In this document: one piece after another, positions 34,943-50,300 of the stretch | Layout of the letters: the number at the start of each line of letters is the position of its first letter | Position numbering within the stretch: position 1 is the stretch's first letter | NCBI GenBank assembly: GCA_963780265.1 | Contig: CAWABQ010000018.1 | Span: forward strand, 2,558 to 66,557 | Direction: 5' to 3' | Source: Candidatus Bathyarchaeota archaeon | Lineage (GTDB): Archaea > Thermoproteota > Bathyarchaeia > 40CM-2-53-6 | Length of the DNA stretch: 64,000 nt | Made by a program: the position numbers and the translations under genes | The notes under the pieces: generated by a model | The model's input: only the letters and a program-made list of their open reading frames with translations | What the model was told of the DNA's origin: nothing | Database searches by the model: none

Positions 34943-36019
34943 ATGACTTCACTAACGGCGCCGCTGCAAGAATCAACACGAGCCAGCAGATTATTTTTCG
35001 TGCTTTCAGGCGAGCACGCATCGCTGCCCGCAGCAGAAGTAGGAGCGATTCTGGAATCGAGTGGCGTAGAATTTCGCGCCCTCGCTCAGAGTTACAGGTT
35101 GCTAACACTAGATGCTCCTTTCGCTGCTTTGAAGTCTGTTTCAGAAAGAAGCCTGATGTACGATTGGTGCGGTCTCAGCCTAGGTGAATGCGATGCCGCC
35201 GAGCAGCAAATTGAGTTTTTCGTGAGGAATCAACCGATTGAACAGTTAATGAGTGGTGCTGAAAGCTTCGCCGTCCGGTCGGTGCGGTTGGGTGGTGCAA
35301 ACAAGTCGATTCGGCGCGTCGACTTGGAAAGTAAGATCGGTTCTGTGGTGAAAGCTATGGTTCCAAGGATGCACGTGCGCCTTCAGAACCCTGACCTGAT
35401 CCTTGCCTGCGTACTTTACGAGAACAGGTTCCTGCTCGGGGTGTCAGGTTACTCGAAGCCGTCCGGCCTGATCGCGCCTAGGCGACCTCGCAAGCGTCCC
35501 GTATTTCACCCTTCCACAATGCCGCCGAAGATAGCGAGGTGCATGGTCAACTTGGCGCGAGCGGTTCCGGGGGCGACATTTGCAGACCCATTCTCAGGGG
35601 TGGGCGGTATAGTGATTGAGGCAGCAGTAATCGGCTGCAGGGTTCTGGGGCTGGATGCGAATTTACGGATGGTTAGGGGCGCTCGCAGAAACATGAAGTA
35701 CTTTGGACTTGCGGCGGAAGGTTTTCTCAATGCAGACGCACGATTCCTCCCTGGGCAAGGCCTAGAGGCCATAGCAACCGATCCCCCGTATGGGCGGGGC
35801 TCATCCACCATGGGATCGAAGGTAACCGCTTTGGTGAAAGAATTCCTCGAAGGGGCGAAGAGCTCACTGAAGAAAGATGCCCACCTATGCATATCAGCCC
35901 CAATGGAGGTTGATGTTGAAGGATACGCGCATCAAGCTGGCTTCGCGCTGAGAGAAAAACACCTTGCAAAGGTCCACCGCAGCTTAACAAGACAGTTCGT
36001 CGTCTTACAAAACTCGTAG
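34943..36019 (+). CDS. THUMP-domain tRNA (guanine-N2)-methyltransferase (Trm-G10/Trm11-like)
   Basis: 358 aa with an N-terminal THUMP-like region. SAM-binding DPFSGVGGIVIEA and a catalytic DPPYG motif. Confidence 0.75.
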   Translation: MTSLTAPLQESTRASRLFFVLSGEHASLPAAEVGAILESSGVEFRALAQSYRLLTLDAPFAALKSVSERSLMYDWCGLSLGECDAAEQQIEFFVRNQPIEQLMSGAESFAVRSVRLGGANKSIRRVDLESKIGSVVKAMVPRMHVRLQNPDLILACVLYENRFLLGVSGYSKPSGLIAPRRPRKRPVFHPSTMPPKIARCMVNLARAVPGATFADPFSGVGGIVIEAAVIGCRVLGLDANLRMVRGARRNMKYFGLAAEGFLNADARFLPGQGLEAIATDPPYGRGSSTMGSKVTALVKEFLEGAKSSLKKDAHLCISAPMEVDVEGYAHQAGFALREKHLAKVHRSLTRQFVVLQNS

Positions 36020-36033
36020 AATGGCTTCGAAAG

Positions 36034-36954
36034 ATGTCTGTGTCAGTAACCTTTCTAGGGACGGGAGGAAGCGTCCCAAGCAAGTTTCGGAACCTCCCAA
36101 GCGTCTTGGTACGTAGGGGCCCAGAGGTGATGCTCTTCGATTGTGGGGAGGGTACGCAACGGCAATTTCTCCAAGCCAGGGCAGGAACAAACCGGAAGAT
36201 GCGCATCTTCATCAGCCACATGCACGGCGACCACGTGTTCGGCTTACCGGGATTACTGCACTCCCTATCGTTCATGGGTAGAACAAACGAGCTGGAGATA
36301 ATCGGTCCGAAAGGCATCGCAGATTTTGTGACTTCCGTTAACCGGGTCGTGAAATTATATTCACGATTTCCGATGCGAATTAAGGAGGTGCGTTATGGCC
36401 GTGTTGTCGACGACGAGGAATACGAGGTACACGCCGCTCCGGCAGAACATGGCATGCCTTGTCTATCTTATGCGTTCGTGGAAAAACCGTGACCGGGAAA
36501 GTTCTATCCTTCCAAAGCCCAGAAGTTGGGTATCCCAGAGGGCCCGCTATGGAAGAAACTACAGACTTCTAGGTCTGTGACGGTCGAAAGAAGAGTGGTC
36601 CCAGCTAGGCTCGTTGTTGGTCCCCCAAGGTGCGGCGTGAAAATCACTTACGCAGTTGACACGCGGCCGTGCGAGGCGGTCGTCAAATTGGCGGGTGAGT
36701 CGGACCTTTTGATTCATGACAGTTGTTTTGCGGAAGCTGCATCCACAAAAGCGAAGGAGTATGGCCACTCCACCGCGAGCGAGGCCGCCCGGGTTGCGAA
36801 GAAAAGTAAGTCCCGAAAATTGGCGCTCTTCCACATCAGCGCTATGTACGAGGACCCCGCGCCACTCTTAGCCCAGGCCAAGAGAATATTTCGTGACACC
36901 ATTCTCCCTAGAGACATGGTTACCGTCTACGTCGCCCCATCTGTTTGCGGCTGA
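36034..36954 (+). pseudogene. rnz: Ribonuclease Z interrupted by an in-frame TGA at 36490-36492
   Basis: HMHGDHVFG metallo-beta-lactamase motif. Both halves are in the same frame: ..YAFVEKP*PGKFYPSKAQKLGIPEGPLWKKLQ.. The stop sits where homologs as I recall them carry Arg (CGA to TGA). The RNase Z identity is high confidence. The pseudogene status is uncertain. Confidence 0.6.
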
Positions 36955-37363
36955 AGCCCTCCCCGGGGCTCGCCGCAAGGAAATCTATTACCGATTCCGG
37001 GACGGGTGACTCTATCTCAATTGAGACTGGTCCATGGGCAGACTCGCCTTCAGGCTCACAGAATGAAACTCGCCCAGCGAAAGCAGCTTGCTTGTTGAGG
37101 TAGATTCGAATCCGTTGACCGCGGGTTCTACTGAAAAGAATCGACCTAGCGGCGCTGCGAATCCTTTCCTGTTTTATCATGATGCGCAGATTCGACAGGA
37201 AGTCAATATCATCGCCATGAATTCCAAGAACGATATCATCCCCACGCGTTCCCAGTTTCTGTATCGGGGCCGAGGGGAAGATGTTATGGAGGGCGCGTTC
37301 CACTTTCGCTTCATCCTCAGTTGGATGAACCACCGTTTCAACGGTGACCTTCAGATCCATCAC
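36920..37363 (-). CDS. UPF0201-type RNA-binding protein (DUF54-like)
   Basis: 147 aa, paired and overlapping with the upstream UPF0200-like kinase gene as in many archaea. Confidence 0.6.
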   Translation of the reverse strand: MMDLKVTVETVVHPTEDEAKVERALHNIFPSAPIQKLGTRGDDIVLGIHGDDIDFLSNLRIMIKQERIRSAARSILFSRTRGQRIRIYLNKQAAFAGRVSFCEPEGESAHGPVSIEIESPVPESVIDFLAASPGEGFSRKQMGRRRR

Positions 37364-37911
37364 GCCTTCATCTTAGCGAGGATGGCTTTGAGGGACGACT
37401 GCAGTTCTGCAATCGTGCCTTCATTTACTACCACAGTATCGGCTAACGCGATGACATGGCCTAACCCGACTTTTAGTTCTCGATTATCGTGCTCGTAGAA
37501 TGTTTCCCACGTCTTTGGGTCGTCGCTTCTGCCTCGAGATAGGAGTCGCTGAAACCGGGTCTTTGGTGAAGCGTGAATGGCCACGGTGACAACCTCGAAT
37601 TTTGATTTGAGCTCAGCGAGTTCCTCGGGCCCTCTGACTCCCTCAACAATAACCACATCGGACCGGCGTTCTTCAATCCTGGAAAGTAGTCTATTCGCAA
37701 CGGCGGCAGGTCCCTCTTCCTCCCTAACCTGCAACATAACCGTGCCCATGTTCTGAGGTGTTGGGTCCAAGCCCCTTCGCTGAGTCTCCTCCCTAATCAC
37801 ATCACCGAGAACGAGCACTTCTATGCCGAGCTGTTTCGCCGCCTCGGCCGCAACCCCTTTCCCAGCGCCGGGCATGCCTGAGATAGCGATAACTTTCTTT
37901 CTTGACCGCAT
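37360..37911 (-). CDS. P-loop nucleotide kinase (UPF0200 / dephospho-CoA-kinase-like)
   Basis: Walker A ISGMPGAGKG. 183 aa. Confidence 0.7.
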   Translation of the reverse strand: MRSRKKVIAISGMPGAGKGVAAEAAKQLGIEVLVLGDVIREETQRRGLDPTPQNMGTVMLQVREEEGPAAVANRLLSRIEERRSDVVIVEGVRGPEELAELKSKFEVVTVAIHASPKTRFQRLLSRGRSDDPKTWETFYEHDNRELKVGLGHVIALADTVVVNEGTIAELQSSLKAILAKMKA

Positions 37912-38002
37912 TTCCTGGTAAACGTCTCCGAGGTCTTCCGCTCATCGCCCGTGAACCGTTAAATTAGGTCATTCAATATTAGCCTTCGCTGGTGGAAATC
38001 AG

Positions 38003-38575
38003 TTGTCGCAAGAACGCATAAGGAGCTTCATTGCAGTGGACTTAGATGAGCCCTCTATACGCGAACGAATAATCGCGGCTCAGAAGGGGTTGGAACAGAC
38101 ACGCGCGCAACTGAAAATCGTAGAACCACAGATAATGCATCTGACCCTCCGCTTTCTCGGAGAAGTCCCACTGGCAACAGTAGAAAGAGTCAAAGAAGCA
38201 ATGGATTCCGTACACTTTCCGCCCTTCGAAGCAGAGTTCACTGGCCTCGGCGTATTCCCAAACCCGAGGCGAATCAACGTGGTCTGGGTAGGGATCAAAC
38301 AAGGGCAAGAACAACTAAATCACATTTTCCAACAACTAGAGCCAAAGCTTAGGCAGATCGGGTTGCCACCAGACGACAAGGGTTTCAGCCCCCACATGAC
38401 CATCGCCCGAGTCCGATCCGCCATAAACAGAGATTCTCTGGTGGCATACGTTGAAAGTATGCGGAGTGAAGAGTTCGGGAAGATGGCCGTAGGGGCTGTG
38501 CGATTGAAAAAGAGCACGCTGACCCCAAGGGGGCCAATATACACGACAATCCATGAGGTAGTCGCTTCGTCCTGA
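38003..38575 (+). CDS. thpR: RNA 2-prime,3-prime-cyclic phosphodiesterase / 2-5 RNA ligase family
   Basis: Two HxT motifs (HLTLRFLG, HMTIARV). Confidence 0.85.
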   Translation: MSQERIRSFIAVDLDEPSIRERIIAAQKGLEQTRAQLKIVEPQIMHLTLRFLGEVPLATVERVKEAMDSVHFPPFEAEFTGLGVFPNPRRINVVWVGIKQGQEQLNHIFQQLEPKLRQIGLPPDDKGFSPHMTIARVRSAINRDSLVAYVESMRSEEFGKMAVGAVRLKKSTLTPRGPIYTTIHEVVASS

Positions 38576-38593
38576 CGGATCAAGTGCACGTTC

Positions 38594-40023
38594 TTGGACA
38601 AATTCGCAGAAGTTTGTGACGCTGTTAAGAAGAAGATTGTGCCCCCGCCAAAATTGAAAAGCGCCGTCGAGTTGCGGGCCGAGCAGATCAGGAGCGATGT
38701 GGAGCGAGAGTGCATTAAGGCGAATCTCGAAGCGGAGGTCCGCTTGGACGGTTCCGTAGCGAAGGACACGTGGATACGGGATTATGCTGACGTCGACATA
38801 TTCATGAGAGTCTCTCCGCAGCTTAGCAAAGCGCAGCTCCGAGATGTATGCTTGCCAGTCGCCCGCGAAGCACTCCGCCCTCACAAAATCGTCGAGAGAT
38901 ACGCGGAGCACCCGTACATTGAATCAACAGTCGATCTGGGAAGAAGCAGTGTGCTTCGGGTCAACGTTGTCCCATGCTACAAGGTCGAGAAGGGTAACTG
39001 GTTAAGCGCCACAGACAGGAGCCCCTACCACACCGAGTACATTCGGCAACACCTCACTGAAGCGCGGCGCAACGAAGTTCGCCTGCTAAAGGCCTTCATG
39101 AAGGGCATAGGGAGCTACGGAGCGGACATCAAAACTGGTGGCTTCAGCGGAATGTTATGCGAAACGCTCATTGTTTCGCAGGAGAATTCCAACAAGTTGT
39201 CAGCGATTTCACACAATGGCAAGAGAACGAATTCGTAGATGTCGAAAACTACTACAAAGGAAGACGTGAGGAAGCGCATCGCATCTTTAGGGAACCGTTG
39301 ATCGTCATCGATCCCGTGGACAAAGGCCGTAACTTAGCCGCCGCAGTCCGACAACACCAGCTTTGGAATTTTGTCGCTGCATGCAGGCAGTTTAACTCGA
39401 GACCATCAGCCGCTCTCTTCGATGAACCAAAGGTGAGAAGGCTGACGCCGACTGACTACCAGAAACTCGTTCGAACTCGTGAGTCGACAATTCTCTGCCT
39501 AGTCGTTGGGGAGATAGATGCAGTTGTCGATATTCTCTGGAGCCAACTCTACCGGACGCGGAGAGCGCTCCTAAGCCTTCTCGAAAATACTGACTTTAAA
39601 GTACTGCAATCATGGGCTTGGACCGATGAAAAGTCACTGACTATCATTTTGTTCGAATTGGAGCAAGGACAGCTACCCAGAACTAGGCACCACGCTGGCC
39701 CCCCAGTTTCCAAGCTTGAGGAAAGTGCTTCCTTTCTATCAAAACATGCGAAGAACGCGAGTACAGTCTCCGGTCCCTGGATTGAACATACCCGGTGGGT
39801 AGTTCAAAAGAGGAGAACGGTTGTTTCCGCAAAGGCCTTGCTCGCCTCAGCCCTCCGTTCGGGGGGAGAAGATGTCGGCGTTGCTGCTTTGCTAGCCAAG
39901 TCCTTCCGGAAGAAGACACGAATTCTTGAAAATGAGAAGATTGGAATGCTGATTGCCTCAAATACGGACTTTGCTAAGGCCATGAGAACCTACCTCTCAG
40001 GAAGGCCAGCATGGTTTGAATGA
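38594..40023 (+). pseudogene. cca: Archaeal class I CCA-adding tRNA nucleotidyltransferase with a frameshift near 39172-39178
   Basis: The N-terminal ORF ...RLDGSVAKDTWIRDYADVDIF...GGFSGMLCETLIV continues in the -1 frame as ..FAGEFQQVVSDFTQW... A 1-nt deletion would explain it. Confidence 0.7.
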
Positions 40024-40774
40024 AAACGAAATTCCACTCCGTAGGCTTCTGGAACCCCATTACTCACGCATACTAACCTATCCAGATACGGATACCAAAG
40101 AAGCAAAGGCAAGGATAAGGGAGCTATCCGAGATCGGGATCTCGGCTTTTCGTTTCGAGGGAGTTACACAGATTGGCGGTATCCCGGTTCTTGGGAAGGG
40201 CTGCGTCGGCGTCGTGACGAAGGCGCGGCTTGAAGGGGAACTGGTAGCCTTGAAGATCCGGCGCTTAGACGCCGACCGGCCATCGATGAACGACGAGGCT
40301 AGGCTGTTGCGGTTCGCGAATAGCGTCGACGCTGGGCCGCGTTTGATTTCTGCAACGAAGAACTTTCTTGCAATGGAACTTTTCCGTGGCATTCCGCTAT
40401 TCCGATGGGCCGAGGGCTCAGGCGCAAGCGGTAGGGTGGTGGGGAAGCTCGTCTCACGCCTCCTGAGCTGTTGCTTCATGCTCGACTCGATTGGGCTTGA
40501 TCATGGGGAGTTAAGCCATGCTCCCAAGAATGTTCTTGTCGCCAAGTCTGGCCATCCCTGCATTGTTGATTTCGAGAGTGCGAGCACGGCAAGGCGCGTC
40601 GCAAACGTCACATCCCTGCTACAATACTTCCTGTTCGGAAGAGTGTCGAGAACGCTTCACGCGTCACGAGTCTTCCCAGACAAAAGGAACATCGTTAAGG
40701 CTCTAGGAGTATACAAGCGGGAAGGCTCGGTCGAGAATTTCCAATGCGTCTTGGATGCGCTTGGCTTGCTGTGA
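40016..40774 (+). CDS. Atypical (RIO/Bud32-like) protein kinase
   Basis: 252 aa. GVVTKARLEGELVALKIRR (VAxK-type), HGELSHAPKNVLV (catalytic-loop-like) and IVDFESA (DFG-like). Confidence 0.6.
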   Translation: MNENEIPLRRLLEPHYSRILTYPDTDTKEAKARIRELSEIGISAFRFEGVTQIGGIPVLGKGCVGVVTKARLEGELVALKIRRLDADRPSMNDEARLLRFANSVDAGPRLISATKNFLAMELFRGIPLFRWAEGSGASGRVVGKLVSRLLSCCFMLDSIGLDHGELSHAPKNVLVAKSGHPCIVDFESASTARRVANVTSLLQYFLFGRVSRTLHASRVFPDKRNIVKALGVYKREGSVENFQCVLDALGLL

Positions 40775-40813
40775 AAAGTTCTTATGAGCGCTCAATTTCT
40801 CTCTGCGATGAAC

Positions 40814-40994
40814 GGGGCCGTCGTCTAGAAGAGATTGCGAGCGCAACTCTCTGGACAGCTTGGTCTGGGAACACGATTCCGCCAACAGGATACCAGAGCG
40901 CAACTGCGCGCGGTGAACCTGGGGCGCTGGCGTCCCCAAGAAACAAGGGTCTTGGGGCCAGAGGTCGTGGGTTCAAATCCCACCGGCCCCACCA
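40814..40994 (+). tRNA. Intron-containing tRNA gene with genomically encoded CCA. The anticodon is unresolved (CCC/Gly in my manual fold, while the acceptor stem looks Pro-like).
   Basis: Acceptor GGGGCCG/CGGCCCC, T arm GTGGG-TTCAAAT-CCCAC, discriminator A, then CCA. The 178-nt span needs about 100 nt removed. Proposed introns are 40829-40858, about 40870-40923 and about 40937-40955. Confidence 0.7.
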
Positions 40995-41008
40995 CTTCGT
41001 GGGTTCAG
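40967..41008 (+). repeat. attL-like direct repeat (tRNA T arm through CCA plus 14 nt)
   Basis: GTGGGTTCAAATCCCACCGGCCCCACCACTTCGTGGGTTCAG. Confidence 0.75.
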
Positions 41009-41056
41009 AACATTCTTTAACCTGCTTCCGCGCTCTAGTTTAGCGCAGGTTTCCAG

Positions 41057-42493
41057 TTGCCGTACAAGGGTCTGGATAAGCTCAAGGAGAAAATTACCGA
41101 GCCGTGTGTTAAGGAGTGGGCGGACACCCTGAAGGAGGGCGATAAGACCACTCTGTATGGCGTTCTGAAGTATCTGGACTGGGTTAGGGAAAACGAGTAT
41201 TTTCAATCAGCGCAGGAGATGCTGGACGACCAGAAGCTCTGCATGCAATCGACAGACGAGGATGTGAAGTACAAGCACCTAGAAATCGTGAAGAAGTACG
41301 TGGGAGGCAAGCGATACCTTACCGGGTCGCATAATGGGGAGCTGGTCGGTGTCCGTGACCGTAGGGCAACTTTTGATTCAATAAAAAGATTCTACGAACA
41401 TTACCGTCGGAAGCTTCCCGACCTGACGAGGAGTGAAGCCAAGGAGCTGTTCGTAGCAACTGAGCTTGACAGGCGTAGGGCTAGACAGATGAAAAAACCG
41501 CTTACAGCCGAGGAAGTCCAAAGGCTGGTAATGGCTATGCCCCAGCCGTACAGGGCGATAATCCTCGTGCTCTTTCAGGGCGCTTTGGGTTTGGCGGAGT
41601 GGGATCAGTTCAACCGTGAACTTTGGCATAACATTGTGCCCGATCTCGACAAGCCAGGCCCGATTAAGATCGATGGATTGATCCGGGTGAAAACGGAGGC
41701 ACAGAAGACCGCAATGAGTGGTGAGGTGCCCCTATACTATACCTACCTTGGTCACGATGCAAAAACGATGCTGAAGGAATGGCTGAACATTAGGCAGCGC
41801 ATGAAGACCGACCTGCCCCATCTTTTTGTCGTAAGAAGCAAGGGGCCGAGAAGCAAGGGTACCTTTGTTCCTGTTACTGGTTGGCTTGTGGAGAAGAATG
41901 TGACGGATCATTCGAAGAGAATTGGATTGATTCCGTACAAGAGCGATGTCAATCGATACCGGGTTCATCCGCACAGGCTTCGAAAGCTGTTCAAGAGCCT
42001 CTGCTCAACGCACGGAGTAGACGAAGTTGTGTCAGAATGGTGTATGGGTCATAACATAGACCGGCTCGGCTACGACGAAAGCCCCGACCTAGATGAGAAA
42101 TTCTTCCGTGACGAGTACAAGAAGGTTGAACCTTCCCTGAACATAATATCGAATCCAGCGGGTGGTTCAGTGGCGGAAGAGGCGAGACGTGAGGCAAGAG
42201 CCGAATTGAATCGCCAACGTCTTCTCGTTGCCCACTACTCGGAGAAACAGATCGAGCAGATGGGTGACCTTTCACGATTCACTACAGACGAGGTTCGAGA
42301 AATGGTCAGGAAGAAACGGCAGCTTGCCAAACAGAAATCCACGGCGCTTAACGGTGGTCAACCCGACGGCAAGGCTGGTAGGCATAAGGTTGTTCCTGTT
42401 GACGAAGTTGCTAAGTGGCTTGATGACGGGTGGGTTTTCGTTCACCGGCTCTCGGATAATCAGGTGGTTATCCGGTTTCCGCCAACCGCTTAG
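41057..42493 (+). CDS. Tyrosine recombinase / integrase
   Basis: 478 aa. HPHRLRKLF (HxxR), CMGH and LGYDE (Tyr) motifs. I could not identify the box I Arg by eye. Confidence 0.8.
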   Translation: MPYKGLDKLKEKITEPCVKEWADTLKEGDKTTLYGVLKYLDWVRENEYFQSAQEMLDDQKLCMQSTDEDVKYKHLEIVKKYVGGKRYLTGSHNGELVGVRDRRATFDSIKRFYEHYRRKLPDLTRSEAKELFVATELDRRRARQMKKPLTAEEVQRLVMAMPQPYRAIILVLFQGALGLAEWDQFNRELWHNIVPDLDKPGPIKIDGLIRVKTEAQKTAMSGEVPLYYTYLGHDAKTMLKEWLNIRQRMKTDLPHLFVVRSKGPRSKGTFVPVTGWLVEKNVTDHSKRIGLIPYKSDVNRYRVHPHRLRKLFKSLCSTHGVDEVVSEWCMGHNIDRLGYDESPDLDEKFFRDEYKKVEPSLNIISNPAGGSVAEEARREARAELNRQRLLVAHYSEKQIEQMGDLSRFTTDEVREMVRKKRQLAKQKSTALNGGQPDGKAGRHKVVPVDEVAKWLDDGWVFVHRLSDNQVVIRFPPTA

Positions 42494-42662
42494 CTTTGGC
42501 GTCAAGCATTTTGCTGTAAGCGTCCATCTTTATGTCCGCCTCTATCTCGGGAAGAGTGTCCGGTTCAGCGAGAATAGCGTCACGAAGCTCGTTGTCGGCT
42601 AGGTATTTGTCCGTTCTCGCCCACGCCTTAACGCCTTCGAAGCTCACCATGTCCTCAGTCAA
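42468..42662 (-). CDS. Hypothetical small protein
   Basis: 64-aa acidic ORF, convergent with the integrase. Confidence 0.4.
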   Translation of the reverse strand: MTEDMVSFEGVKAWARTDKYLADNELRDAILAEPDTLPEIEADIKMDAYSKMLDAKAKRLAETG

Positions 42663-42726
42663 CCACGAGCGCCCAGAAAGAGAGTTATACTGTCACTTTG
42701 ATAAGGTATGCCAATGTGTTTCCAGT

Positions 42727-42966
42727 ATGTCAGAAGAGAAGCTGAGCGGTGCCGAAAAGGCAAAGGAGCTTCTGCGATCAGGTCGGCATGTCTTCCTGCA
42801 AACGGTGGGATATTCTGAGCATGAAATCCTTGGATTCGGAGATCTTGGCGAGCTATCTTCTGATAAAGTAAGCGAACTGCTTCACAGGAAAGCCTTGGAA
42901 GCGTTCGCTAGGTATTTTGACAAGGAAAATGTTCGGGTCAAGCGGCTCAATGAAGCAAATGAGTGA
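42727..42966 (+). CDS. Hypothetical small protein
   Basis: MSEEKLSGAEKAKELLRSG... The internal Met of ORF 42532-42966 was chosen to avoid overlap with the minus-strand ORF. Confidence 0.4.
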   Translation: MSEEKLSGAEKAKELLRSGRHVFLQTVGYSEHEILGFGDLGELSSDKVSELLHRKALEAFARYFDKENVRVKRLNEANE

Positions 42967-42996
42967 AACTGGTTTGCCGTCCGGTCTTCCGAGCGT

Positions 42997-43485
42997 ATGC
43001 GGCTGAAGTTAATGAAACTATTTGATCTGTTTCGCAGAGCAAAGGCTGAACGGCCCGAAAACATGGGTGCGGACATTCTAAGAATCGAAAATAGAACTCA
43101 AATGTTCTGCTACTACAATACATTGGCATTGGAAATCTTAGCAGCTACCCTTGCCAGCGTTATCGCTTTAGAAACTCTCCCATTCGTTGTCAACAATGAA
43201 CTCCGCAACAAAATGTTCCTTCCAATCAACGCTGGATGCACTCTGATACTCGTAGGCGGAGCATATCTCTTTTACCATCTGCGAAGTCTTGCGGCCAGGT
43301 GGATAAGTTTCCCTTGGGAAGATGATCGCACGAGTCCTAAAGCGTGGATAGACTATGTGGAGATAGGCGACTGGAAGACACGTCGCTCGCCCAGGGAGAT
43401 TATAACCGATACTGGCTTGATTGCCTTCATCGTTGCAGCAGCAATCATTGGCGTTTCGGCGTGGTTCTGGTTCGGATTGAAATGA
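42997..43485 (+). CDS. Membrane protein, hypothetical
   Basis: 162 aa with 3-4 TM segments. Confidence 0.5.
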   Translation: MRLKLMKLFDLFRRAKAERPENMGADILRIENRTQMFCYYNTLALEILAATLASVIALETLPFVVNNELRNKMFLPINAGCTLILVGGAYLFYHLRSLAARWISFPWEDDRTSPKAWIDYVEIGDWKTRRSPREIITDTGLIAFIVAAAIIGVSAWFWFGLK

Positions 43486-43617
43486 TCGTGTTGAGATGAA
43501 TCAGTGCGCCGCTGAATCGCTGTGGTTCTTGCATAAGTTGCCACAAGAATTTTGTTTGAGTTGTCACGAAGAATCGGACGAGTTGCCTGCTAACCAGCGT
43601 AAGGAACCTTGGAAAGT

Positions 43618-43980
43618 GGAGACAACAGCTATTCGTTTTTCTTGGTCAAACCCTTTCGGTCTGTTGTCTCTTATGACAGAGTTTTCACCACCCCCGCGGA
43701 CGCTCGCCACCCGCCGAAATCCTGACCATTATTCCGTTGTCTCCGGTTTTCGATGGAATTTGCGTGGAAATTCGCCACGAATTCCACCCTTGCTTATATC
43801 CTCGCTCGGCCAGAGCTAGTTCACGATGCGAGTGAGCCTTTCAAAGGACATCATTCGATCGTTACCGTGACAACGTGCGACGACGTGCCCGGGCGGGCTG
43901 ATTTCGACTTACTCGTTATTGTATTCGTTGACTAACGCTTTCGAGGATACACAGGACGGAGACAACGGGTGGGAGACAGC
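43618..43980. repeat. Iteron-like GGAGACAAC repeats in a mostly non-coding stretch
   Basis: GGAGACAACAG at 43618-43628 with its inverted partner at 43661-43670. CGTTGTCTCC at 43735-43744. GGAGACAACG at 43958-43967. GGAGACAGC at 43972-43980. Confidence 0.6.
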
Positions 43981-44055
43981 AATTTCGATTCGAAGAAGAA
44001 CAATCTCGTGCGGAGAGCATCTAATTCGATGAGAAATGCGGCTATTTGAAAACGC

Positions 44056-44523
44056 TTACCGACAAGTAGATTCCATGAGCATTGCGCTCATTCCGCTTCT
44101 CAGGACGTGCGTGCGCATCACGCTGGCGGATTTGGCATGTAAAGTCACTTCGAGGAACGTGCGCCTAGCCTTCATCAATTCTCGACACGCACGCTGAGTC
44201 TCAACGCTAAACATCATAGTAGATTTGTTTTGACTCAAAGTTGCAAAGTGAATCCAGGAGCAAGTCCAGATGCAGGCGCAGGCGCCGACACACGCTTCGC
44301 TTTTTGAGGTTTTGTTTTTCTTGTCCATCACGGTAGAGGTTGCTACATTTTCCTCTTTCCTACTTGATTTCCAATTACCTTTTCTGCTCTTTCTTTGCTT
44401 CGGCCTCTTTCCGCATCTGGCGCTTTTCAGAGCTGCTGGTCTCTTCCTGTCACTTCTGCTTTGGTTGTGGTCGCTTTTCTTCCCTTTTGTCTTCGCTTTT
44501 CGGCTCGCTTTGTTCGCTTTCAC
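44056..44523 (-). CDS. Highly basic Lys/Arg/Ser-rich hypothetical protein
   Basis: 155-aa ORF lying in a tract that is pyrimidine-rich on the plus strand. Coding status is doubtful. Confidence 0.3.
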   Translation of the reverse strand: MKANKASRKAKTKGKKSDHNQSRSDRKRPAALKSARCGKRPKQRKSRKGNWKSSRKEENVATSTVMDKKNKTSKSEACVGACACIWTCSWIHFATLSQNKSTMMFSVETQRACRELMKARRTFLEVTLHAKSASVMRTHVLRSGMSAMLMESTCR

Positions 44524-44615
44524 TCTTTTCTGAAGCCCGCCCTTTCTTGGCGGCGGCGGTCTAAATGTCGATTAACGATATTGAAGCGAATTGAGAGAAG
44601 AAAGAGGAGGCGAGG

Positions 44616-44831
44616 TTATTCTCGGCGTTTCGCTGGGCGAGGCCCCGTAGGGCGTTTTTCTGATCGGTACTTTTCGATTGCTCTGTCGAGAAGTTGCATA
44701 TCGTGTTGAATGGATGAGCGGTATCTCTCTATCCTCCAGAAGAGTTGGTGTATGCTTCTCATCCTGGCACCTGTACGGAGGAATACGTCCAATTTCTTCC
44801 GTTCGTTCTCGCTGAAGATTGAGCTGTTCAT
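44616..44831 (-). CDS. Small putative DNA-binding regulator
   Basis: 71 aa, divergent from the NYN gene across an operator-like repeat array. Confidence 0.45.
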   Translation of the reverse strand: MNSSIFSENERKKLDVFLRTGARMRSIHQLFWRIERYRSSIQHDMQLLDRAIEKYRSEKRPTGPRPAKRRE

Positions 44832-44861
44832 GGAGATACTTCCTTGAAGATATTCCCTGTA

Positions 44862-44914
44862 ACGGAATATTTATATCTTTATTCCGTGTATAGGAATATT
44901 CCGTGTGACGGAAT
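44862..44914. promoter_or_regulatory. Array of ACGGAAT / ATTCCGT half-sites in a divergent promoter
   Basis: ACGGAATA (44862-44869) pairs with TATTCCGT (44880-44887) around tttatat. GGAATATTCC palindrome at 44893-44902. ATTCCGT-gtg-ACGGAAT at 44898-44914. Confidence 0.6.
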
Positions 44915-45514
44915 ATGGCTCAACAATCCGTGAACGCCGAGAGTGACGAAGTAGGTAGGGGTGTCCAGCTGCTTATCGACGGAGAAAACCTCTACATGAG
45001 GACGGTTGAATACTTGAAAGCACGGAACATGCCTTCAGACACGGCAGCTGCAACCGAATTTATCCTTGCAAAAATCGGCGAACTTGTTGATTCGATTGAA
45101 GACAGATAGGTCTCCGGATCGATGTAGGATACTATTACTTGACCAGCGTCGGCGTGGACGCATTACGAAGCAGAAGAATGCTTGGTGGGATTCAAAGAAC
45201 AGTTAAGGCAGTTGGGAATCGAGATACGGTGTAATAGACAAGCGGAATGACAAGGCAGGAAACGTTGACCCTCGCTTAATCTCGGAGGCATACCGGCTCC
45301 TGCTTATTGAGAAGAAGGCGCCTTCTAACCTGGTTCTTGTGAGCGGCGACAAAGACTACGAACCCATGCTCGCAGACTACGAGAAGCAAAGCCGACAAGT
45401 AGCCATATGCTTCTATCTGCCTGGAGGCGGAGGAGCATCCATAGACCTACTGAGCATAAGAGGAACAGAATTCATCAACTTTGACAATCCGCAACAATCG
45501 TGGATAATTGCGTA
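44915..45514 (+). pseudogene. NYN (LabA-like) domain nuclease gene, heavily degraded
   Basis: N-terminal VQLLIDGENLY and C-terminal LVLVSGDKDYEPML are in the same frame. They are separated by TAG (45107) and TAA (45203), and the middle segment reads in other frames. Confidence 0.65.
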
Positions 45515-45633
45515 GCGACCTGCAGGATCTTACTGAACTTCGCCTCTTACTATCTTGGGGAGATTCATAGCAGCCTGTTGGTAGGCTTCCATCATCCGTT
45601 GAACAATAGTTACTTTCGGGGAAGAAAGTGGGC

Positions 45634-46332
45634 TCAAAAAGCCAACTTAACTACGGCTTGATCCAATTTCAGTATTTCACCGGCGCCAAGAGCAATGAGT
45701 TGGCTTTTTTTCTTCGGTTTATGAAAGTTGTTGTCCTCTGTTAGGAAGATGCCACCACCGTATCGAATGTGGCTCCACATTGCGAGTACATCACATTTTG
45801 GGTTACGCCAGTGTCGGTCTATTTCCCCACTTTTCGGGTCAAGATCCTTTTTCTTACAGAACTCTTCGTAGGAAAATTGGATCTCTGGAAAGAGTATTTC
45901 ATGTATCTTTTGCTCAAGTTCCAGCATGGGAACACTGGCAGTTACGCACCAATCAATGTAGGTAATGTCCAAGTAACATAGTGGCTTTAGAATCTCTACC
46001 TTTCCAAGCCCCACGGCAGTAATCCTGTTCCTAAACTCAGAGAAATTCGAAGCATATGTTCGATCAGGTTTTTTTTCAGAAGCGCTGATTGCGACTACTC
46101 TCAGGTTGATCCTGTGGTCGTCATGCATCTTGGCGAGTGTCCTTAGTCTACTCGCTCTGCCTTGTACCGCTTGACTCGCTATGCCTACTGCCTTTTCAAG
46201 ATCGATGATGTAATTGGTATCAAGCGTCACATTGACATTCTGAAACGGCGCATCACCCAAGCTCTTCCTAGGTGCAACTGACAGTAATTTCAGTGTTGCC
46301 TCAACCGAGTATGCGTCAGCGGTGTGACACAA
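45634..46332 (-). CDS. PIN-domain-like nuclease
   Basis: VTLDTNYIIDLEK near the N-terminus and GIFLTEDNNF near the C-terminus fit PIN acidic motifs. 232 aa. Confidence 0.5.
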   Translation of the reverse strand: MCHTADAYSVEATLKLLSVAPRKSLGDAPFQNVNVTLDTNYIIDLEKAVGIASQAVQGRASRLRTLAKMHDDHRINLRVVAISASEKKPDRTYASNFSEFRNRITAVGLGKVEILKPLCYLDITYIDWCVTASVPMLELEQKIHEILFPEIQFSYEEFCKKKDLDPKSGEIDRHWRNPKCDVLAMWSHIRYGGGIFLTEDNNFHKPKKKSQLIALGAGEILKLDQAVVKLAF

Positions 46333-46346
46333 CAGTTAACAGAGGA

Positions 46347-47348
46347 ATGAGGGAACCTATACTCTTGTGGTGGAGCTTGCCATATTGTTCAAGATGCGGA
46401 ACGGAGCTAACCGCAGGCATTAAGTTCTGCACAAATTGTGGAGCATCAACCTCAGCTCCACTTCCAACCGTGCCCCCCGTGCAGACTAAGCCTTCGCACA
46501 CGAAAAGGAATCTTGCCATCATCGTAATCTTTGTGATTCTGGTTGGAGTTGTCGCAGCCGCCTCTTCCAGGGGCCCCTCTCAGAGTGGCACCACGCAGAC
46601 CACGATTGGTGAATTACCGACAGGGAGTACAGTCACCATCGGAGAGCCGTTCATTGTGAAAGGCACGGACGATGTGCCTGTGCAGCTAAACTTCACATCA
46701 GCTTGGTTCGCAATGCGGTACGACGACACTGGAGCCGTCTCACCCAACAAGTATTTCGTGCTCGAATTCCAGATGAAGAATGTTGGAATTAGATCGACCA
46801 GTGTGTTTTCTCTTGCGTTCCTGAAGTGGGATGCGCTCGTAGATAAGGGGTACATTTACGAGTCCGACAATTACGCTGACTGGAATTTCAGCTCAGGTGT
46901 GGGGCCTGCAGAAGTTGCCACTAATAATGTGGTCTTCAATATTCTGGCGGCAACGACTCCGCTCGAAGTCAGGTACTACGATACGTGCGCAGGGAGCACT
47001 GCGGATTGTTCTCCCACTTTCACGGTGAACTTGCGTGGAATCACCATCCCTGCCAAAGAAGAGTTGACTGTTGAGTCTTCCTCCTCCTTCTGCGCCTTCC
47101 AAAATGGAACGGTAAACATGCTCAATGTCACCAACTCAGGGCTCGCTGCTGTAACCATAGCAGAGGTCTACTACGCTGACCAAATTGTCAATGCGAACCC
47201 CACACAGATCCGGCCCGGAGAAACAGTCGGCATACCCATCACCATCCCAAGCAACATTCAGGCAGGCTTCGCTCAACAGTACGAAATCAAAGTCGTCACC
47301 ACTCAAGGTAACACGTTCACAGAAAACTGCTACTACGAGGGGTCGTGA
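46347..47348 (+). CDS. Zinc-ribbon / single-TM / extracellular beta-domain protein
   Basis: YCSRCGTELTAGIKFCTNCGAS, then the TM segment LAIIVIFVILVGVVAAA, then a DUF4352-like segment. The start was moved to an internal Met. Confidence 0.6.
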   Translation: MREPILLWWSLPYCSRCGTELTAGIKFCTNCGASTSAPLPTVPPVQTKPSHTKRNLAIIVIFVILVGVVAAASSRGPSQSGTTQTTIGELPTGSTVTIGEPFIVKGTDDVPVQLNFTSAWFAMRYDDTGAVSPNKYFVLEFQMKNVGIRSTSVFSLAFLKWDALVDKGYIYESDNYADWNFSSGVGPAEVATNNVVFNILAATTPLEVRYYDTCAGSTADCSPTFTVNLRGITIPAKEELTVESSSSFCAFQNGTVNMLNVTNSGLAAVTIAEVYYADQIVNANPTQIRPGETVGIPITIPSNIQAGFAQQYEIKVVTTQGNTFTENCYYEGS

Positions 47349-47810
47349 ATGGCTGAAAGAACGCCCGAGTTCGTTCTCGGACTCGCCGGCGGGATACTGG
47401 GATTGGTGGCGGCTCCGATCATGTTTCTTGCCGGAGGAATACTCGCCGCCTTTGGTCTAAGCTCTGGCGTAACCCTAGTTGGAGTCTCGGTTGTAGGTGG
47501 GATTCTATCGATAGTTGGATTGATTGGGGCGGCGTTCGTCAAAAGTCATCCAAAAGCGTCGGGTGTCATGATGCTTCTGAGCGGTCTGCTCGGCCTGTTT
47601 GTTGTCCTAGGCTTCTGGCTTGGCGCTCTATTGCTGCTGGTGGCAGGTGTTGTAGCGCTTCTAAGGAAAGAGAAGTCTACCAAGCCTCCACCGCCGCCAC
47701 CATCGACCCAAACGAAGGTCTTCTGTACGAACTGCGGCAAACCCTTGACCTATGTTCAACAGTACCAGAAATGGTATTGTGAAAACTGCAAACAGTACGC
47801 CCCCTCCTAA
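47349..47810 (+). CDS. Multi-TM protein with a C-terminal zinc ribbon
   Basis: Gly-rich TM segments, a PPPPPP linker, then FCTNCGKPL...YCENCKQ. Confidence 0.6.
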   Translation: MAERTPEFVLGLAGGILGLVAAPIMFLAGGILAAFGLSSGVTLVGVSVVGGILSIVGLIGAAFVKSHPKASGVMMLLSGLLGLFVVLGFWLGALLLLVAGVVALLRKEKSTKPPPPPPSTQTKVFCTNCGKPLTYVQQYQKWYCENCKQYAPS

Positions 47811-47976
47811 CGAGTTTCTTTGTTCGCCGAAAAATACGTGAATCGTCTCCGAAAAACGCCTTATTTGTCTGCTCTGCGTTAACGCCTCTGATGGACAAGG
47901 AAAATAGTCCGATGCGAAGACATAAGTCAATCTTTACTCCTTATGCTGTCAGATTCTCTCTCATCTGTGAGCGTGT

Positions 47977-48861
47977 ATGAAAATTAGCAGTGCGTCGATG
48001 TTACTCGTTCTCGCTCTGGTGGCAACGCCAAGTCAAGTATTTGCTAGCATGACCTTTCCTCAAAACGGATCAAGTTTGACCTATGCGAGCTTTGTCACTT
48101 CCAAAACGTCGCAAGGAAACATTACTGCAGCTTCAACCGATTCATACAGCTTTCAACAGACAGGGAGCCAATGGAATGTGACAGAAAGGATTACAGGGAA
48201 AATCACTTGCTCTCCTCAGGCAGCGCAATTGAGTGTCAGGTTTCGTACAACGTCGGATATCATGGGAGCAAACTCAATCGTCTCAAATGACCCGAACATA
48301 GACATCAAAGTAAGTTACGTGGTACAAGACAGAGTCGTTGAATCGACTCCAATTGGGTCAAACGTACCAGCGGGATATTCCGCAGAGTGTACTGTTGGAG
48401 GAATTGACGTAGCGGCTGTTTCTCAAGCGACACCTGCATTGTACGTGTCTGGCTTTCGCTACTACGTCTTGCTCTATATTCAAACCGCCGGAGTCGCTGT
48501 GGGAAGTTCAGTGCCGGTTGCAATTATGACTTCTACAATATCAGGAATTCAGAATGTGATAGTACTGAATACTTCGCGGCCAGCGTTTGTGGGAACCATT
48601 ACAGGTATCACAAGTGGAAGCTTGTACTGGGACAGGGACAGCGGTATCCTGCTCTCGGAAGAATCGACCAGCAGTACACAATCAGAGAGAATGTTGCTAA
48701 CTTACAGCACTGTACCTATTCCAGAATTTGAGTTGTCACAAATCATCGCAATCGTAACCACAACCATTACATTGTTTGCGCTCGCAGTAAACCGAAAACG
48801 ACCTCATTCAAGCTCACGTCGATTATCCGTACCCATAATTTCCTATTTGTCTTCGCCTTAG
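47977..48861 (+). CDS. Secreted protein with a PEF-CTERM-type sorting signal
   Basis: Signal peptide present. The C-terminus reads VPIPEFELSQIIAIVTTTITLFALAVNRKR. Confidence 0.65.
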   Translation: MKISSASMLLVLALVATPSQVFASMTFPQNGSSLTYASFVTSKTSQGNITAASTDSYSFQQTGSQWNVTERITGKITCSPQAAQLSVRFRTTSDIMGANSIVSNDPNIDIKVSYVVQDRVVESTPIGSNVPAGYSAECTVGGIDVAAVSQATPALYVSGFRYYVLLYIQTAGVAVGSSVPVAIMTSTISGIQNVIVLNTSRPAFVGTITGITSGSLYWDRDSGILLSEESTSSTQSERMLLTYSTVPIPEFELSQIIAIVTTTITLFALAVNRKRPHSSSRRLSVPIISYLSSP

Positions 48862-48930
48862 GTTATGTGACTAAGAGGGGATACGTGCGAATCCTTCCTG
48901 TGGTAGGAATATTACTGAACCCACGACCTA

Positions 48931-48972
48931 GTGGGTTCGTATCCCACCGGCCCCACCACTTTCGTGGGGACG
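48931..48972 (+). repeat. attR-like tRNA 3-prime fragment (DR2)
   Basis: GTGGGTTCGTATCCCACCGGCCCCACCACTTTCGTGGGGACG. It is preceded by the inverted copy GAACCCAC (48917-48924), forming an 8-bp hairpin. Confidence 0.75.
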
Positions 48973-49150
48973 ATCAGCAACCGTCGTCCATATCGTAATT
49001 TCGTGTGTCTGGGTCTAATGGTGCGCACACACAAATCACATGTGCTCGCTTCGCTCGCAGTAATCCTTTATGATCTAAACTGATGAGCGCTTCAGCGTCG
49101 CAGAAGCTATTACGTGTAAGTATTTCTAGGGCTTTCCTTGGTGGAATTGT

Positions 49151-49999
49151 GTGACGGACCGTCATCCGAGCAACACCGCGATCGGTGCTGCAACAATGCG
49201 TGCTGTCCACCAGCTCATCGATGAAGAACCAAAGATTCTCAATGACCCTATTGTGCTTCGACTTCTCGACGCATCCACCCTTGACCAGATTCACTTGAAC
49301 CCAAACAAGTTCCGGACACCGAGGATGAAAGCGATGCGCTCACATATCGTGTTACGCAGCCGGTACACGGAGGATCGGTTGGCCGAGGCGGTCGACAATG
49401 GCGTTCAGCAGTATCTGATGTTGGGCGCTGGCCTCGATACCTTCCCTTATCGACAACCTCATTGGGCGAGAGTACTGCGGATTTTCGAAGTAGATCACTC
49501 AGCAAGTCAGCATTCGAAGCGCGAACGGCTGGCCTTGGCTGGGATTGAAGCTCCGGCGAACGTCGAGCTAATCGCTCTTGATTTTGAGACCACCTCTCTC
49601 CGTGATTGTTTGCGCAAAAGCAGTTTCGATTTTGGGAAACCTGCATTTCTTTCGTGGCTCGGTGTTACGATGTATCTGAGCACAGACGCGATCGATGCAG
49701 TATTCAGGTTTGCAAATTCGTTGCCAAGATCGAGCGAGATAGTTTTCACGTTTGCATCTCCTGCTTCCACAGTGAAGGAAAATTACCGTGAACGCTTGAT
49801 TGCTGTTTTTGCGGCGGGGCACGGGGAGCCATGGCTTACGCGTTTCGAGCCAAATGGCTTGGCCCACAAGTTGCATGGGTTGGGTTTTTCGACAGTATCG
49901 TTTCTTTCGGCTTCAGAGGCGGATACACAATATTTCCGAGGTCGTCACGATGGTCTTAGTGCACCGCGAAAGGTTGGGATTGTGGCCGCTACCGTCTAA
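49151..49999 (+). CDS. Class I SAM-dependent methyltransferase (leucine carboxyl methyltransferase-like family)
   Basis: NTAIGAATMRAVH...LNDPIV...RSRYTEDRL...QQYLMLGAGLDTFPYR...EVDH. Confidence 0.75.
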   Translation: MTDRHPSNTAIGAATMRAVHQLIDEEPKILNDPIVLRLLDASTLDQIHLNPNKFRTPRMKAMRSHIVLRSRYTEDRLAEAVDNGVQQYLMLGAGLDTFPYRQPHWARVLRIFEVDHSASQHSKRERLALAGIEAPANVELIALDFETTSLRDCLRKSSFDFGKPAFLSWLGVTMYLSTDAIDAVFRFANSLPRSSEIVFTFASPASTVKENYRERLIAVFAAGHGEPWLTRFEPNGLAHKLHGLGFSTVSFLSASEADTQYFRGRHDGLSAPRKVGIVAATV

Positions 50000-50154
50000 G
50001 CCGATTCGCTTGCAGTCTTTAACTAAGTACTCTACAGTTCCTTGGGCACAAGTCCGGTAGTGTACTAATAGGCTTGTAACTTGAACCATCAATTTGTGTG
50101 TGCCCTACACCAACACACCCACACAAAAATGGAAGGATTGTACCCACAAAATTG

Positions 50155-50182
50155 GTGGGTACATATCCCATCGACCCCACGA
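50155..50182 (+). repeat. Degenerate tRNA 3-prime-end copy (DR3a)
   Basis: GTGGGTACATATCCCATCGACCCCACGA, about 21/28 identical to the tRNA end. Preceded by the inverted copy GTACCCAC at 50140-50147. Confidence 0.55.
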
Positions 50183-50184
50183 CA

Positions 50185-50300
50185 GATTGCATTCCATCTT
50201 TAGTACCGGAAGCAGAAACGACTCGAAATGGGGCGTTTCAGAGATAGCCCACCGAGAATTCCAAATAAGTCCCACCGGCCCCACCATATCATGGGTTCAA
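50185..50300 (+). repeat. Repeat R-A, ending in tRNA-end copy DR3b (TCCCACCGGCCCCACCA at 50270-50286)
   Basis: About 100 nt, homologous to 60591-60689. The 17-mer is identical to the tRNA 3-prime end and is followed by tatcATGGGTTCAA. Confidence 0.7.

Follow-up and report, generated by a model that had tools for sequence, protein, structure and literature searches.

The 64,000-nucleotide stretch of bathyarchaeal DNA analysed here (the window) raises the question of whether an archaeon can do without the two enzymes that finish the 3' ends of its tRNAs. In this stretch, the genes for RNase Z (rnz) and the CCA-adding enzyme (cca) are both interrupted, close to a tRNA gene that carries its own CCA. 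If the interruptions were real, an archaeon would have lost both enzymes at once, and the accepted requirement of the two for tRNA 3'-end maturation would be overturned. They could also be faults in the consensus sequence of the metagenome-assembled genome (MAG).

Gene neighbourhood and the two lesions

The neighbourhood formed by a Trm-G10-like gene, rnz, ThpR, cca and tRNA-Pro is real (Table 1). Among the 22 relatives having both rnz and cca, the two genes lie at most about 7 kb apart on one contig in 18, and they are separated by 2-3 kb in most, within the genus as well as order-wide. Three of the gene names given in an earlier note on this DNA, ThpR, RNase Z and the CCA-adding enzyme, hold at NCBIfam cut-offs, the latter two through their conspecific copies. 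The fourth, Trm-G10, is a weaker call, as the THUMP-domain methyltransferase scores 247.8 bits on TIGR01177, below the cut-off of 316.55. A family search with the 252-aa ORF downstream of cca returned no significant match.

Table 1 Features of the rnz-cca-tRNA neighbourhood, in window coordinates.
Feature	Position	Strand	Remarks
THUMP-domain RNA methyltransferase (Trm-G10/Trm11-like), intact	34943-36019	+	PF01170 (4.9e-28), PF02926 (THUMP)
rnz (RNase Z)	36034-36957	+	single frame, internal TGA
In-frame TGA in rnz	36490-36492	+	CGA (Arg) in conspecific contigs and G018; on a CGCG motif, CCGCGA to CCGTGA
Small RNA-binding protein	36920-37363	-	PF01877 (6.3e-15)
P-loop nucleotide-kinase-like protein	37360-37911	-	AAA_17
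ThpR, RNA 2',3'-cyclic phosphodiesterase, intact	38003-38575	+	TIGR02258, 160.5 bits (cut-off 65.7); PF02834
cca (archaeal class I CCA-adding enzyme)	38594-40023	+	split by 1-nt deletion
cca, first ORF	38594-39238	+	frame 2
cca, second ORF	39157-40023	+	frame 1
1-nt deletion site in cca	39177-39183	+	TCGC-AGGAG in the MAG, TCGCGCGGAG in conspecific contigs; CGCGCG motif
252-aa ORF	40016-40774	+	kinase-like motifs
Probable tRNA-Pro(GGG) gene, four predicted BHB introns, encoded CCA	40814-40994	+	acceptor stem, T arm, conservation
Predicted tRNA-Pro exons	40814-40828, 40859-40865, 40888-40896, 40918-40933, 40963-40994	+	
Predicted tRNA-Pro introns	40829-40858, 40866-40887, 40897-40917, 40934-40962	+	
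Predicted tRNA-Pro anticodon	40921-40923	+	

The in-frame TGA that the earlier note had placed in rnz, at a position where homologs have Arg, was confirmed. At this site, Arg or Lys is encoded in each of the 11 genus relatives with a full-length match, and the closest relative, G018, has CGA, so that the TGA amounts to a single C-to-T change. In the window, the only families reaching Pfam cut-offs on the rnz pieces are PF00753 (on the 152-aa piece) and PF12706 (on both pieces), both metallo-beta-lactamase families, and the tRNase Z family PF13691 matches the 152-aa piece only, with a score below its cut-off. The gene is identified as an RNase Z of TIGR02651 through the intact copy of a conspecific contig (L078:2032-2952; 342.1 bits, equivalog cut-off 292.95), while in the window itself the ORF is interrupted. 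Apart from the stop codon, few base substitutions separate the window rnz from this copy, and the HxHxDH metal-binding motif (SHMHGDH), invariant in relatives, is present in the translation of the window gene. An internal TGA seemingly found in the rnz of another relative, G001, was dismissed as the normal stop codon of that gene.

The -1 shift in cca that had been proposed near 39175 was also confirmed, as a 1-nt deletion at 39180/39181 that lies within an Arg codon, outside any homopolymer, and splits Pfam family PF09249 at profile position 38/39. Here too, the assignment to TIGR03671 comes from the intact conspecific copy (L078:4592-6019; 385.8 bits, cut-off 281.3), the window ORF being interrupted.

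Origin of the lesions

Three metagenome contigs of the same species (97-99% nucleotide identity), L078, L066 and L067, were aligned with the window. Identity to the window is 98.7% for L078 and L066, in alignments of 7004 nt with one gap, and 97.2% for L067. All three contigs have CGA at 36490, and the base missing at 39180 is retained in L078 and L066, the two contigs covering the cca site. In both of these, rnz and cca are full-length and score above the NCBIfam equivalog cut-offs. The 7 kb shared with the conspecific contigs holds only one indel, an observation that counts against an error-rich reading of the sequence.

Selection on the two genes shows no sign of relaxation. Between the MAG and G018, dN/dS is 0.085 for rnz and 0.166 for cca, matching the values for the intact pair of G018 and a control relative, G014 (0.072 and 0.164, respectively). 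Downstream of the lesions, the values between the MAG and G018 are 0.10 for rnz and 0.198 for cca, and thus dN/dS does not rise towards 1 either overall or behind the lesions. The real relaxation of the 3'-end pathway that the earlier note had raised as an option is therefore disfavoured.

Lesions of the same kind are found throughout the MAG. When the ORFs from 400 kb of G018 were searched against it and orthologs of at least 250 aa were counted, 50 of 136 (about 37%) had a frameshift and/or an in-frame stop relative to G018, with 51 frameshifts and 34 in-frame stops in total. In the control, the same queries gave 0 frameshifts and 4 stops in 61 orthologs of G014. Per kb of coding sequence, the MAG carries about 0.3 frameshifts and 0.2 in-frame stops genome-wide. 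At this rate, rnz and cca, together 2.35 kb long, would be expected to hold about 1.2 lesions; the pair is thus not above chance. Essential genes are affected as much as non-essential ones, with family-B DNA polymerase, ABCE1, topoisomerase IA and a Hel308-type helicase among those disrupted. The completeness of the MAG is estimated at about 75%, a value that may have been lowered by broken marker genes.

The lesions are enriched at one motif. When all 4-mers are ranked by indel fraction between the MAG and G018, CGCG comes first with 3.1% (median 0.32%), and it is also the 4-mer most depleted in the MAG relative to G018. A CGCG is found no more than 6 nt away from 16 of the 70 frame-breaking indels, compared with a background of 4% (p = 1e-8). 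In the comparison with L078, the MAG shows a change at 6 of 37 CGCG sites, and only 1 of 32 is altered in the reverse direction. Both the rnz TGA and the cca deletion sit on CGCG motifs. Of all frame-breaking indels, the motif explains only roughly one in four. Indels at homopolymers are the best-known signature of long-read errors; no clear homopolymer enrichment was seen among the 70 indels, 29 of which touch runs of at least 3 bases, the placement of gaps being imprecise at 85% identity.

Besides the MAG, three assemblies of the genus are rich in frameshifts, G005, G016 and G017. In G016, which consists of 3 contigs, a cca frameshift falls at the same CGCG motif as that of the MAG, and an rnz frameshift adjoins ACGCGT.

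Taken together, the genome-wide lesions, the intact conspecific contigs and the CGCG hot spot favour the assembly error that the earlier note had listed among its options. Judging from these sequence comparisons, the rnz TGA and the missing base of cca very probably arose as consensus errors in a MAG assembly rich in such faults, rather than being features of the organism. In this assembly, CGCG is especially prone to substitutions and small indels, presumably through a systematic fault of base calling or consensus building such as might arise from methylated CGCG in long-read data. Species-specific DNA modification is a recognised cause of systematic errors (PMC8011154, the Homopolish paper), and the hot spot is a hint that DNA may be modified in these Bathyarchaeia. 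The organism itself most likely has uninterrupted, working rnz and cca genes, as do the conspecific contigs and every well-assembled relative.

An alternative is that the mutations are genuine in the sampled strain, rnz and cca being recent pseudogenes that are tolerated since every tRNA gene encodes CCA. The earlier note had started from tRNA genes that mostly lack CCA. This does not apply here, as 22 of 26 ARAGORN tRNA calls in the genome, including all credible ones, end in genomic CCA and the other four look spurious, which agrees with the pseudogene scenario, as does the rnz change, a C-to-T transition at a CpG-rich motif and hence a plausible deamination. However, purifying selection on rnz and cca persists (dN/dS 0.07-0.18) in genus relatives whose syntenic tRNA gene likewise includes the CCA, the conspecific contigs are intact, and 37% of genes are hit alike, DNA polymerase B, ABCE1 and topoisomerase IA included, which would not be viable in a cell. 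Nor does encoded CCA make RNase Z dispensable, since the enzyme is still needed for trailer removal: contrary to the earlier view of CCA-bearing precursors as poor substrates, the two archaeal RNase Z enzymes tested process them efficiently, cutting just after the CCA (PMC7479834). Recent pseudogenes are accordingly an improbable explanation, and it is quite unlikely that both lesions are real in this strain. Taken by itself, the TGA in rnz might be genuine variation of the strain, as methylated cytosines are true mutational hot spots for C-to-T change.

Expression of the two genes by recoding, with readthrough or reassignment of TGA in rnz and programmed -1 frameshifting in cca, is consistent with the reading frames being open and conserved on both sides of the lesions and with the G016 frameshift at the same cca codon. 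But G016 is itself frameshift-rich and has lost a different base there; the TGA is absent from the 11 full-length genus relatives and the three conspecific contigs, the cca shift is absent from relatives and conspecifics except the frameshift-rich G005, G016 and G017, and no slippery heptamer was found at the cca site. In addition, in-frame stops across the genome comprise 14 TAG, 13 TAA and 12 TGA codons aligned to many different residues, and stop-codon reassignment is rejected because all three stop codons occur in frame. Recoding thus appears extremely improbable and, as far as comparative data allow, refuted. Hardly more credible is the existence of intact backup copies that would make these genes dispensable, even though a second copy could sit in the missing part of a MAG that is about three-quarters complete. 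A six-frame search of the whole MAG found no second rnz, only a 33%-identical metallo-beta-lactamase paralog that is present in all relatives, and no second cca, just the two fragments; relatives that are 96-100% complete carry a single full-length rnz match, along with weak hits to the metallo-beta-lactamase paralog, and a single cca.

With consensus error as the preferred explanation, the lesions say nothing on tRNA biology, because they are two among hundreds in a draft genome and are missing from same-species assemblies. The MAG is therefore unfit for inferring pseudogenes, recoding or gene loss without re-polishing.

The tRNA-Pro(GGG) gene

The tRNA ending in genomic ACCA, which the earlier note had described, was confirmed as a tRNA-like gene. 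In its unspliced form, the gene is not called by ARAGORN and reaches the gathering score of no Rfam family, RF00005 included; the only Rfam trace is a sub-threshold match to the tRNA-like domain of the tmRNA model. Conservation of the gene extends to 12 genus relatives and to metagenome contigs, and its product spliced in silico is called tRNA-Pro(ggg) by ARAGORN in 13 of 13 genus sequences.

Of the four predicted introns, one lies in the D loop, one at the D-loop/D-stem junction, one in the anticodon stem (30/31) and one in the variable loop. All of them fit the BHB motif, defined here as a 4-bp helix with two flanking 3-nt bulges, each 3' of its own strand and containing the two splice sites, and one cutting rule (after the second bulge nucleotide) yields the cloverleaf. 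The 21 stem pairs of the mature cloverleaf are paired in 100% of cells. The precursor BHBs are paired in 98.3%, a figure that provides no independent test as the structure was derived from the same genus sequences. The predicted mature tRNA measures 76 nt plus CCA, and the junction 40933|40963 is the least certain of its four predicted splices.

Two other foldings were rejected. An anticodon stem TTGGT/GCCAG with the loop CTGGGAA conflicts with the canonical D-loop AGCUUGGUC that results from intron 1. A three-intron cloverleaf with the anticodon stem CTGGC/GCCAG has the best pairing score, yet its anticodon would fall in a segment whose bases vary and covary from species to species. More distant metagenome relatives yielded no form of the tRNA with a lower number of introns.

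The predicted structure suggests, with some confidence, that the locus is a functional tRNA-Pro(GGG) gene with four BHB introns and with exons invariant across this Bathyarchaeia genus. Archaeal tRNA genes are stated to contain up to three introns (PMC8450103, the tRNAscan-SE 2.0 paper), and the predicted number would be one above this maximum, making the gene a small but genuine curiosity. A 9.3-kb integrated element uses the gene as its attachment site.

Comparison with known systems

The faults of this MAG resemble long-read (nanopore-type) consensus errors, in that one-base indels are frequent, occur genome-wide, affect essential genes and do not occur in close relatives. Their enrichment at one short palindromic motif, CGCG, is comparable to modification-linked errors of nanopore-type data. 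Unlike typical long-read assembly errors, they show no clear homopolymer enrichment, and the methylation of CGCG in this organism is putative. The tRNA-Pro gene is similar to the multi-intron tRNA genes of Thermoproteales and Thaumarchaeota, whose non-canonical introns in the D arm, anticodon stem and variable loop are flanked by BHBs and which standard tRNA finders miss, but differs from them in its four predicted introns within one gene and in its Bathyarchaeia host.

Two lesions in rnz and cca

ORF listing and translation confirmed that the rnz frame, encoding RNase Z, is interrupted by a TGA at 36490-36492, the in-frame stop noticed earlier at 36490. The cca gene, encoding the CCA-adding enzyme, consists of two overlapping ORFs one frame apart and lacks one base relative to the closest relative (G018), which bears out the shift placed near 39175. 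The observation of both lesions in the sequence is correct. In Pfam searches, the rnz pieces matched the metallo-beta-lactamase domains PF00753 and PF12706, and the tRNase Z family PF13691 matched the first piece only, with a score below the cut-off. The archaeal tRNA nucleotidyltransferase domains are spread over both cca pieces, with the break at position 38/39 of PF09249. Nearby, ThpR scored above its NCBIfam cut-off, and the THUMP methyltransferase is Trm-G10-like with a score under the TIGR01177 cut-off. A 252-aa ORF (40016-40774), whose position between cca and the tRNA is conserved, contains the protein-kinase-like motifs VALKI, HGELSHAPKNVLV and DFE, and had no significant family match in Pfam or NCBIfam.

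Features of the tRNA-maturation region (window positions)
Feature	Position	Strand	Basis
rnz, single frame with internal TGA	36034-36957	+	ORF listing, translation
cca, two overlapping ORFs one frame apart	38594-39238 and 39157-40023	+	ORF listing, translation
tRNA-Pro(GGG), four predicted bulge-helix-bulge (BHB) introns of 30, 22, 21 and 29 nt	40814-40994		predicted structure
tRNA-Pro exons	40814-40828, 40859-40865, 40888-40896, 40918-40933, 40963-40994		predicted BHB cuts
478-aa recombinase-like ORF	41057-42493		faint XerA-type match

Among genus relatives, rnz is uninterrupted in 11, which carry either Arg or Lys where the window has its TGA. G018 (88% aa identity) reads CGA there, and the rnz lesion is therefore one C-to-T change. 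The cca gene is uninterrupted in most relatives; G018 has TCGCGCGGA against TCGC-AGGA in the window, where one base of an Arg codon is missing at a site that is not a homopolymer. Both genes are also frameshifted in two few-contig genus assemblies (G016:C3:547723-551718, L029; G017:C4:571482-575493, L031), of which G017 has many stops, and both look error-rich like the present MAG.

Origin of the lesions

A metagenome scan with ThpR yielded three useful conspecific contigs. Contigs L078 and L066 align with the window at 98.7% identity over 7004 nt and L067 at 97.2% over 4473 nt. All three read CCGCGACC at the rnz site, where the window reads CCGTGACC, and L078 and L066 read TTTCGCGCGGAG at the cca site against TTTCGC-AGGAG, this lesion being the sole gap in their 7-kb alignment. 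Scored against NCBIfam equivalog models, the conspecific rnz and cca products exceed the cut-offs for RNase Z and archaeal CCA-adding enzyme. The window is contig C18 of the MAG (G000; 2.08 Mb, 48 contigs, ~75% complete), and proteins that cluster with its rnz product bear the name Candidatus Bathyarchaeia. ORFs from 400 kb of G018 were searched against this whole MAG, counting orthologs of at least 250 aa. Among 136 orthologs, 39 carried frameshifts and 23 in-frame stops, with 50 genes affected overall; the density is 0.30 per kb for frameshifts and 0.20 per kb for stops. The affected genes include those for family-B DNA polymerase, ABCE1, topoisomerase IA and a Hel308 helicase. Identical queries against another relative, G014, gave 0 frameshifts in 61 orthologs and 4 stops, indicating a low background of the survey method. 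Two lesions in the 2.35 kb of rnz and cca are what the genome-wide background predicts.

The biological readings raised in the earlier note, namely stop-codon readthrough or frameshifting, backup paralogs and a relaxed 3'-end pathway, are not supported. A search of the whole assembly found no second rnz or cca copy. In the comparison of the window with G018, rnz has a dN/dS of 0.085 and cca one of 0.166, and the intact pair G014 and G018 gives 0.072 and 0.164; 3' of the lesions they are 0.10 and 0.198, the intact-pair control (0.194) covering the cca part only. The parts downstream of the lesions are as constrained as elsewhere, and neither gene shows signs of decay. A changed genetic code is excluded because the in-frame stops comprise all three codons (TAG 14, TAA 13, TGA 12) opposite many different residues. 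Assembly error is very probably the explanation of both lesions.

Both lesion sites are CGCG in relatives. In G000-G018 alignments, indels affect a larger fraction of this motif than of any other 4-mer (3.1%; median 0.32%), and it is the least conserved and has the lowest G000/G018 frequency ratio, being the most depleted. Of 70 frame-breaking indels, 16 lie within 6 nt of CGCG (background 4%; p = 1e-8), the motif covering just about a quarter of them. CGCG sites differ in the window versus L078 in 6 of 37 cases, against 4.8% for other 4-mers (p = 0.008), and in the reverse direction 1 of 32 is changed. In G016 (3 contigs, frameshift-rich), the cca frameshift falls on the same CGCG and the rnz frameshift adjoins ACGCGT. 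Homopolymer enrichment of indels was not evident in G000. The CGCG patterns suggest a systematic consensus error, perhaps one that long-read data show where a motif is methylated, and the hot spot may mark such a motif; DNA modifications peculiar to a species are known to cause consensus errors of this kind (PMC8011154). CGCG in G000 is also a hot spot for C-to-T changes. Noteworthy by-products are this hot spot, the universal encoded CCA and the predicted four-intron tRNA-Pro as attachment site.

Encoded CCA and the conserved neighbourhood

Across G000, 22 of 26 ARAGORN tRNA predictions end in genomic CCA, contrary to the expectation that tRNA genes mostly lack it; the other four have implausible ends or kilobase-sized introns, so all credible calls encode CCA and encoded CCA is the rule in the lineage. 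In all relatives, the syntenic tRNA likewise has ACCA at its 3' end. Nearly all ARAGORN-detectable tRNA genes of G000 have introns; only 26 tRNAs were found, and many multi-intron genes were probably missed.

Of the 22 relatives that possess both rnz and cca, 18 carry the two genes within ~7 kb of each other on a single contig, mostly 2-3 kb apart, a linkage spanning the genus and other families of the order. In examined genus members, the two genes flank ThpR and are followed by the tRNA-Pro gene. The rnz-ThpR-cca-tRNA-Pro array is a conserved tRNA-maturation neighbourhood. The supposition that CCA-bearing precursors are poor RNase Z substrates is untrue for two archaeal enzymes, which handle precursors with and without CCA equally well and cleave immediately 3' of the CCA, inhibition by CCA being a property of Bacillus RNase Z (PMC7479834). 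Conservation of both genes despite encoded CCA fits this report.

A predicted four-intron tRNA-Pro gene and integration at its 3' end

No tRNA was called in the window by ARAGORN, nor by Rfam at gathering score. A relaxed search revealed a perfect acceptor stem, T arm and ACCA across 40814-40994, in agreement with the tRNA gene ending in genomic ACCA described earlier. This 181-nt gene, with three hairpins of variable loops, is kept in 12 genus relatives and further metagenome contigs. Four BHB motifs, each a 4-bp helix followed by a 3-nt bulge per strand, can be drawn, and cutting after the second bulge nucleotide was applied at all eight sites. The product spliced in silico has a canonical D loop (AGCUUGGUC), a D stem GUCU/GGAU, a perfect anticodon stem CCAGC/GCUGG spanning a splice junction, and a loop CUGGGGC giving anticodon GGG and G37; the predicted variable loop is 7 nt. 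ARAGORN called it tRNA-Pro(GGG) in 13 of 13 sequences, from which the structure was itself derived, the tested splice keeping one extra base (40962). The exons are invariant across the genus, and all variable columns among the 13 aligned sequences fall in introns, the variable loop or wobble-compatible stem changes.

Alignment with conspecific contigs ends just past the tRNA, at ~41005. The 3'-terminal 17 nt of the tRNA (TCCCACCGGCCCCACCA, 40978-40994) recur as direct repeats at 48942-48958 and at 50270-50286. Beyond 50286 the sequence returns to the native downstream flank seen in L078, and 40995-50286 is absent from L078 and L066. The repeats, the resumed flank and the recombinase-like ORF together indicate that 40995-50286 represents one or two elements integrated into the 3' end of tRNA-Pro.

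No report of four introns in one archaeal tRNA gene was found in the literature searched; the maximum given for archaeal tRNA genes in the tRNAscan-SE 2.0 paper is three (PMC8450103), one fewer than predicted for this tRNA-Pro(GGG) gene.
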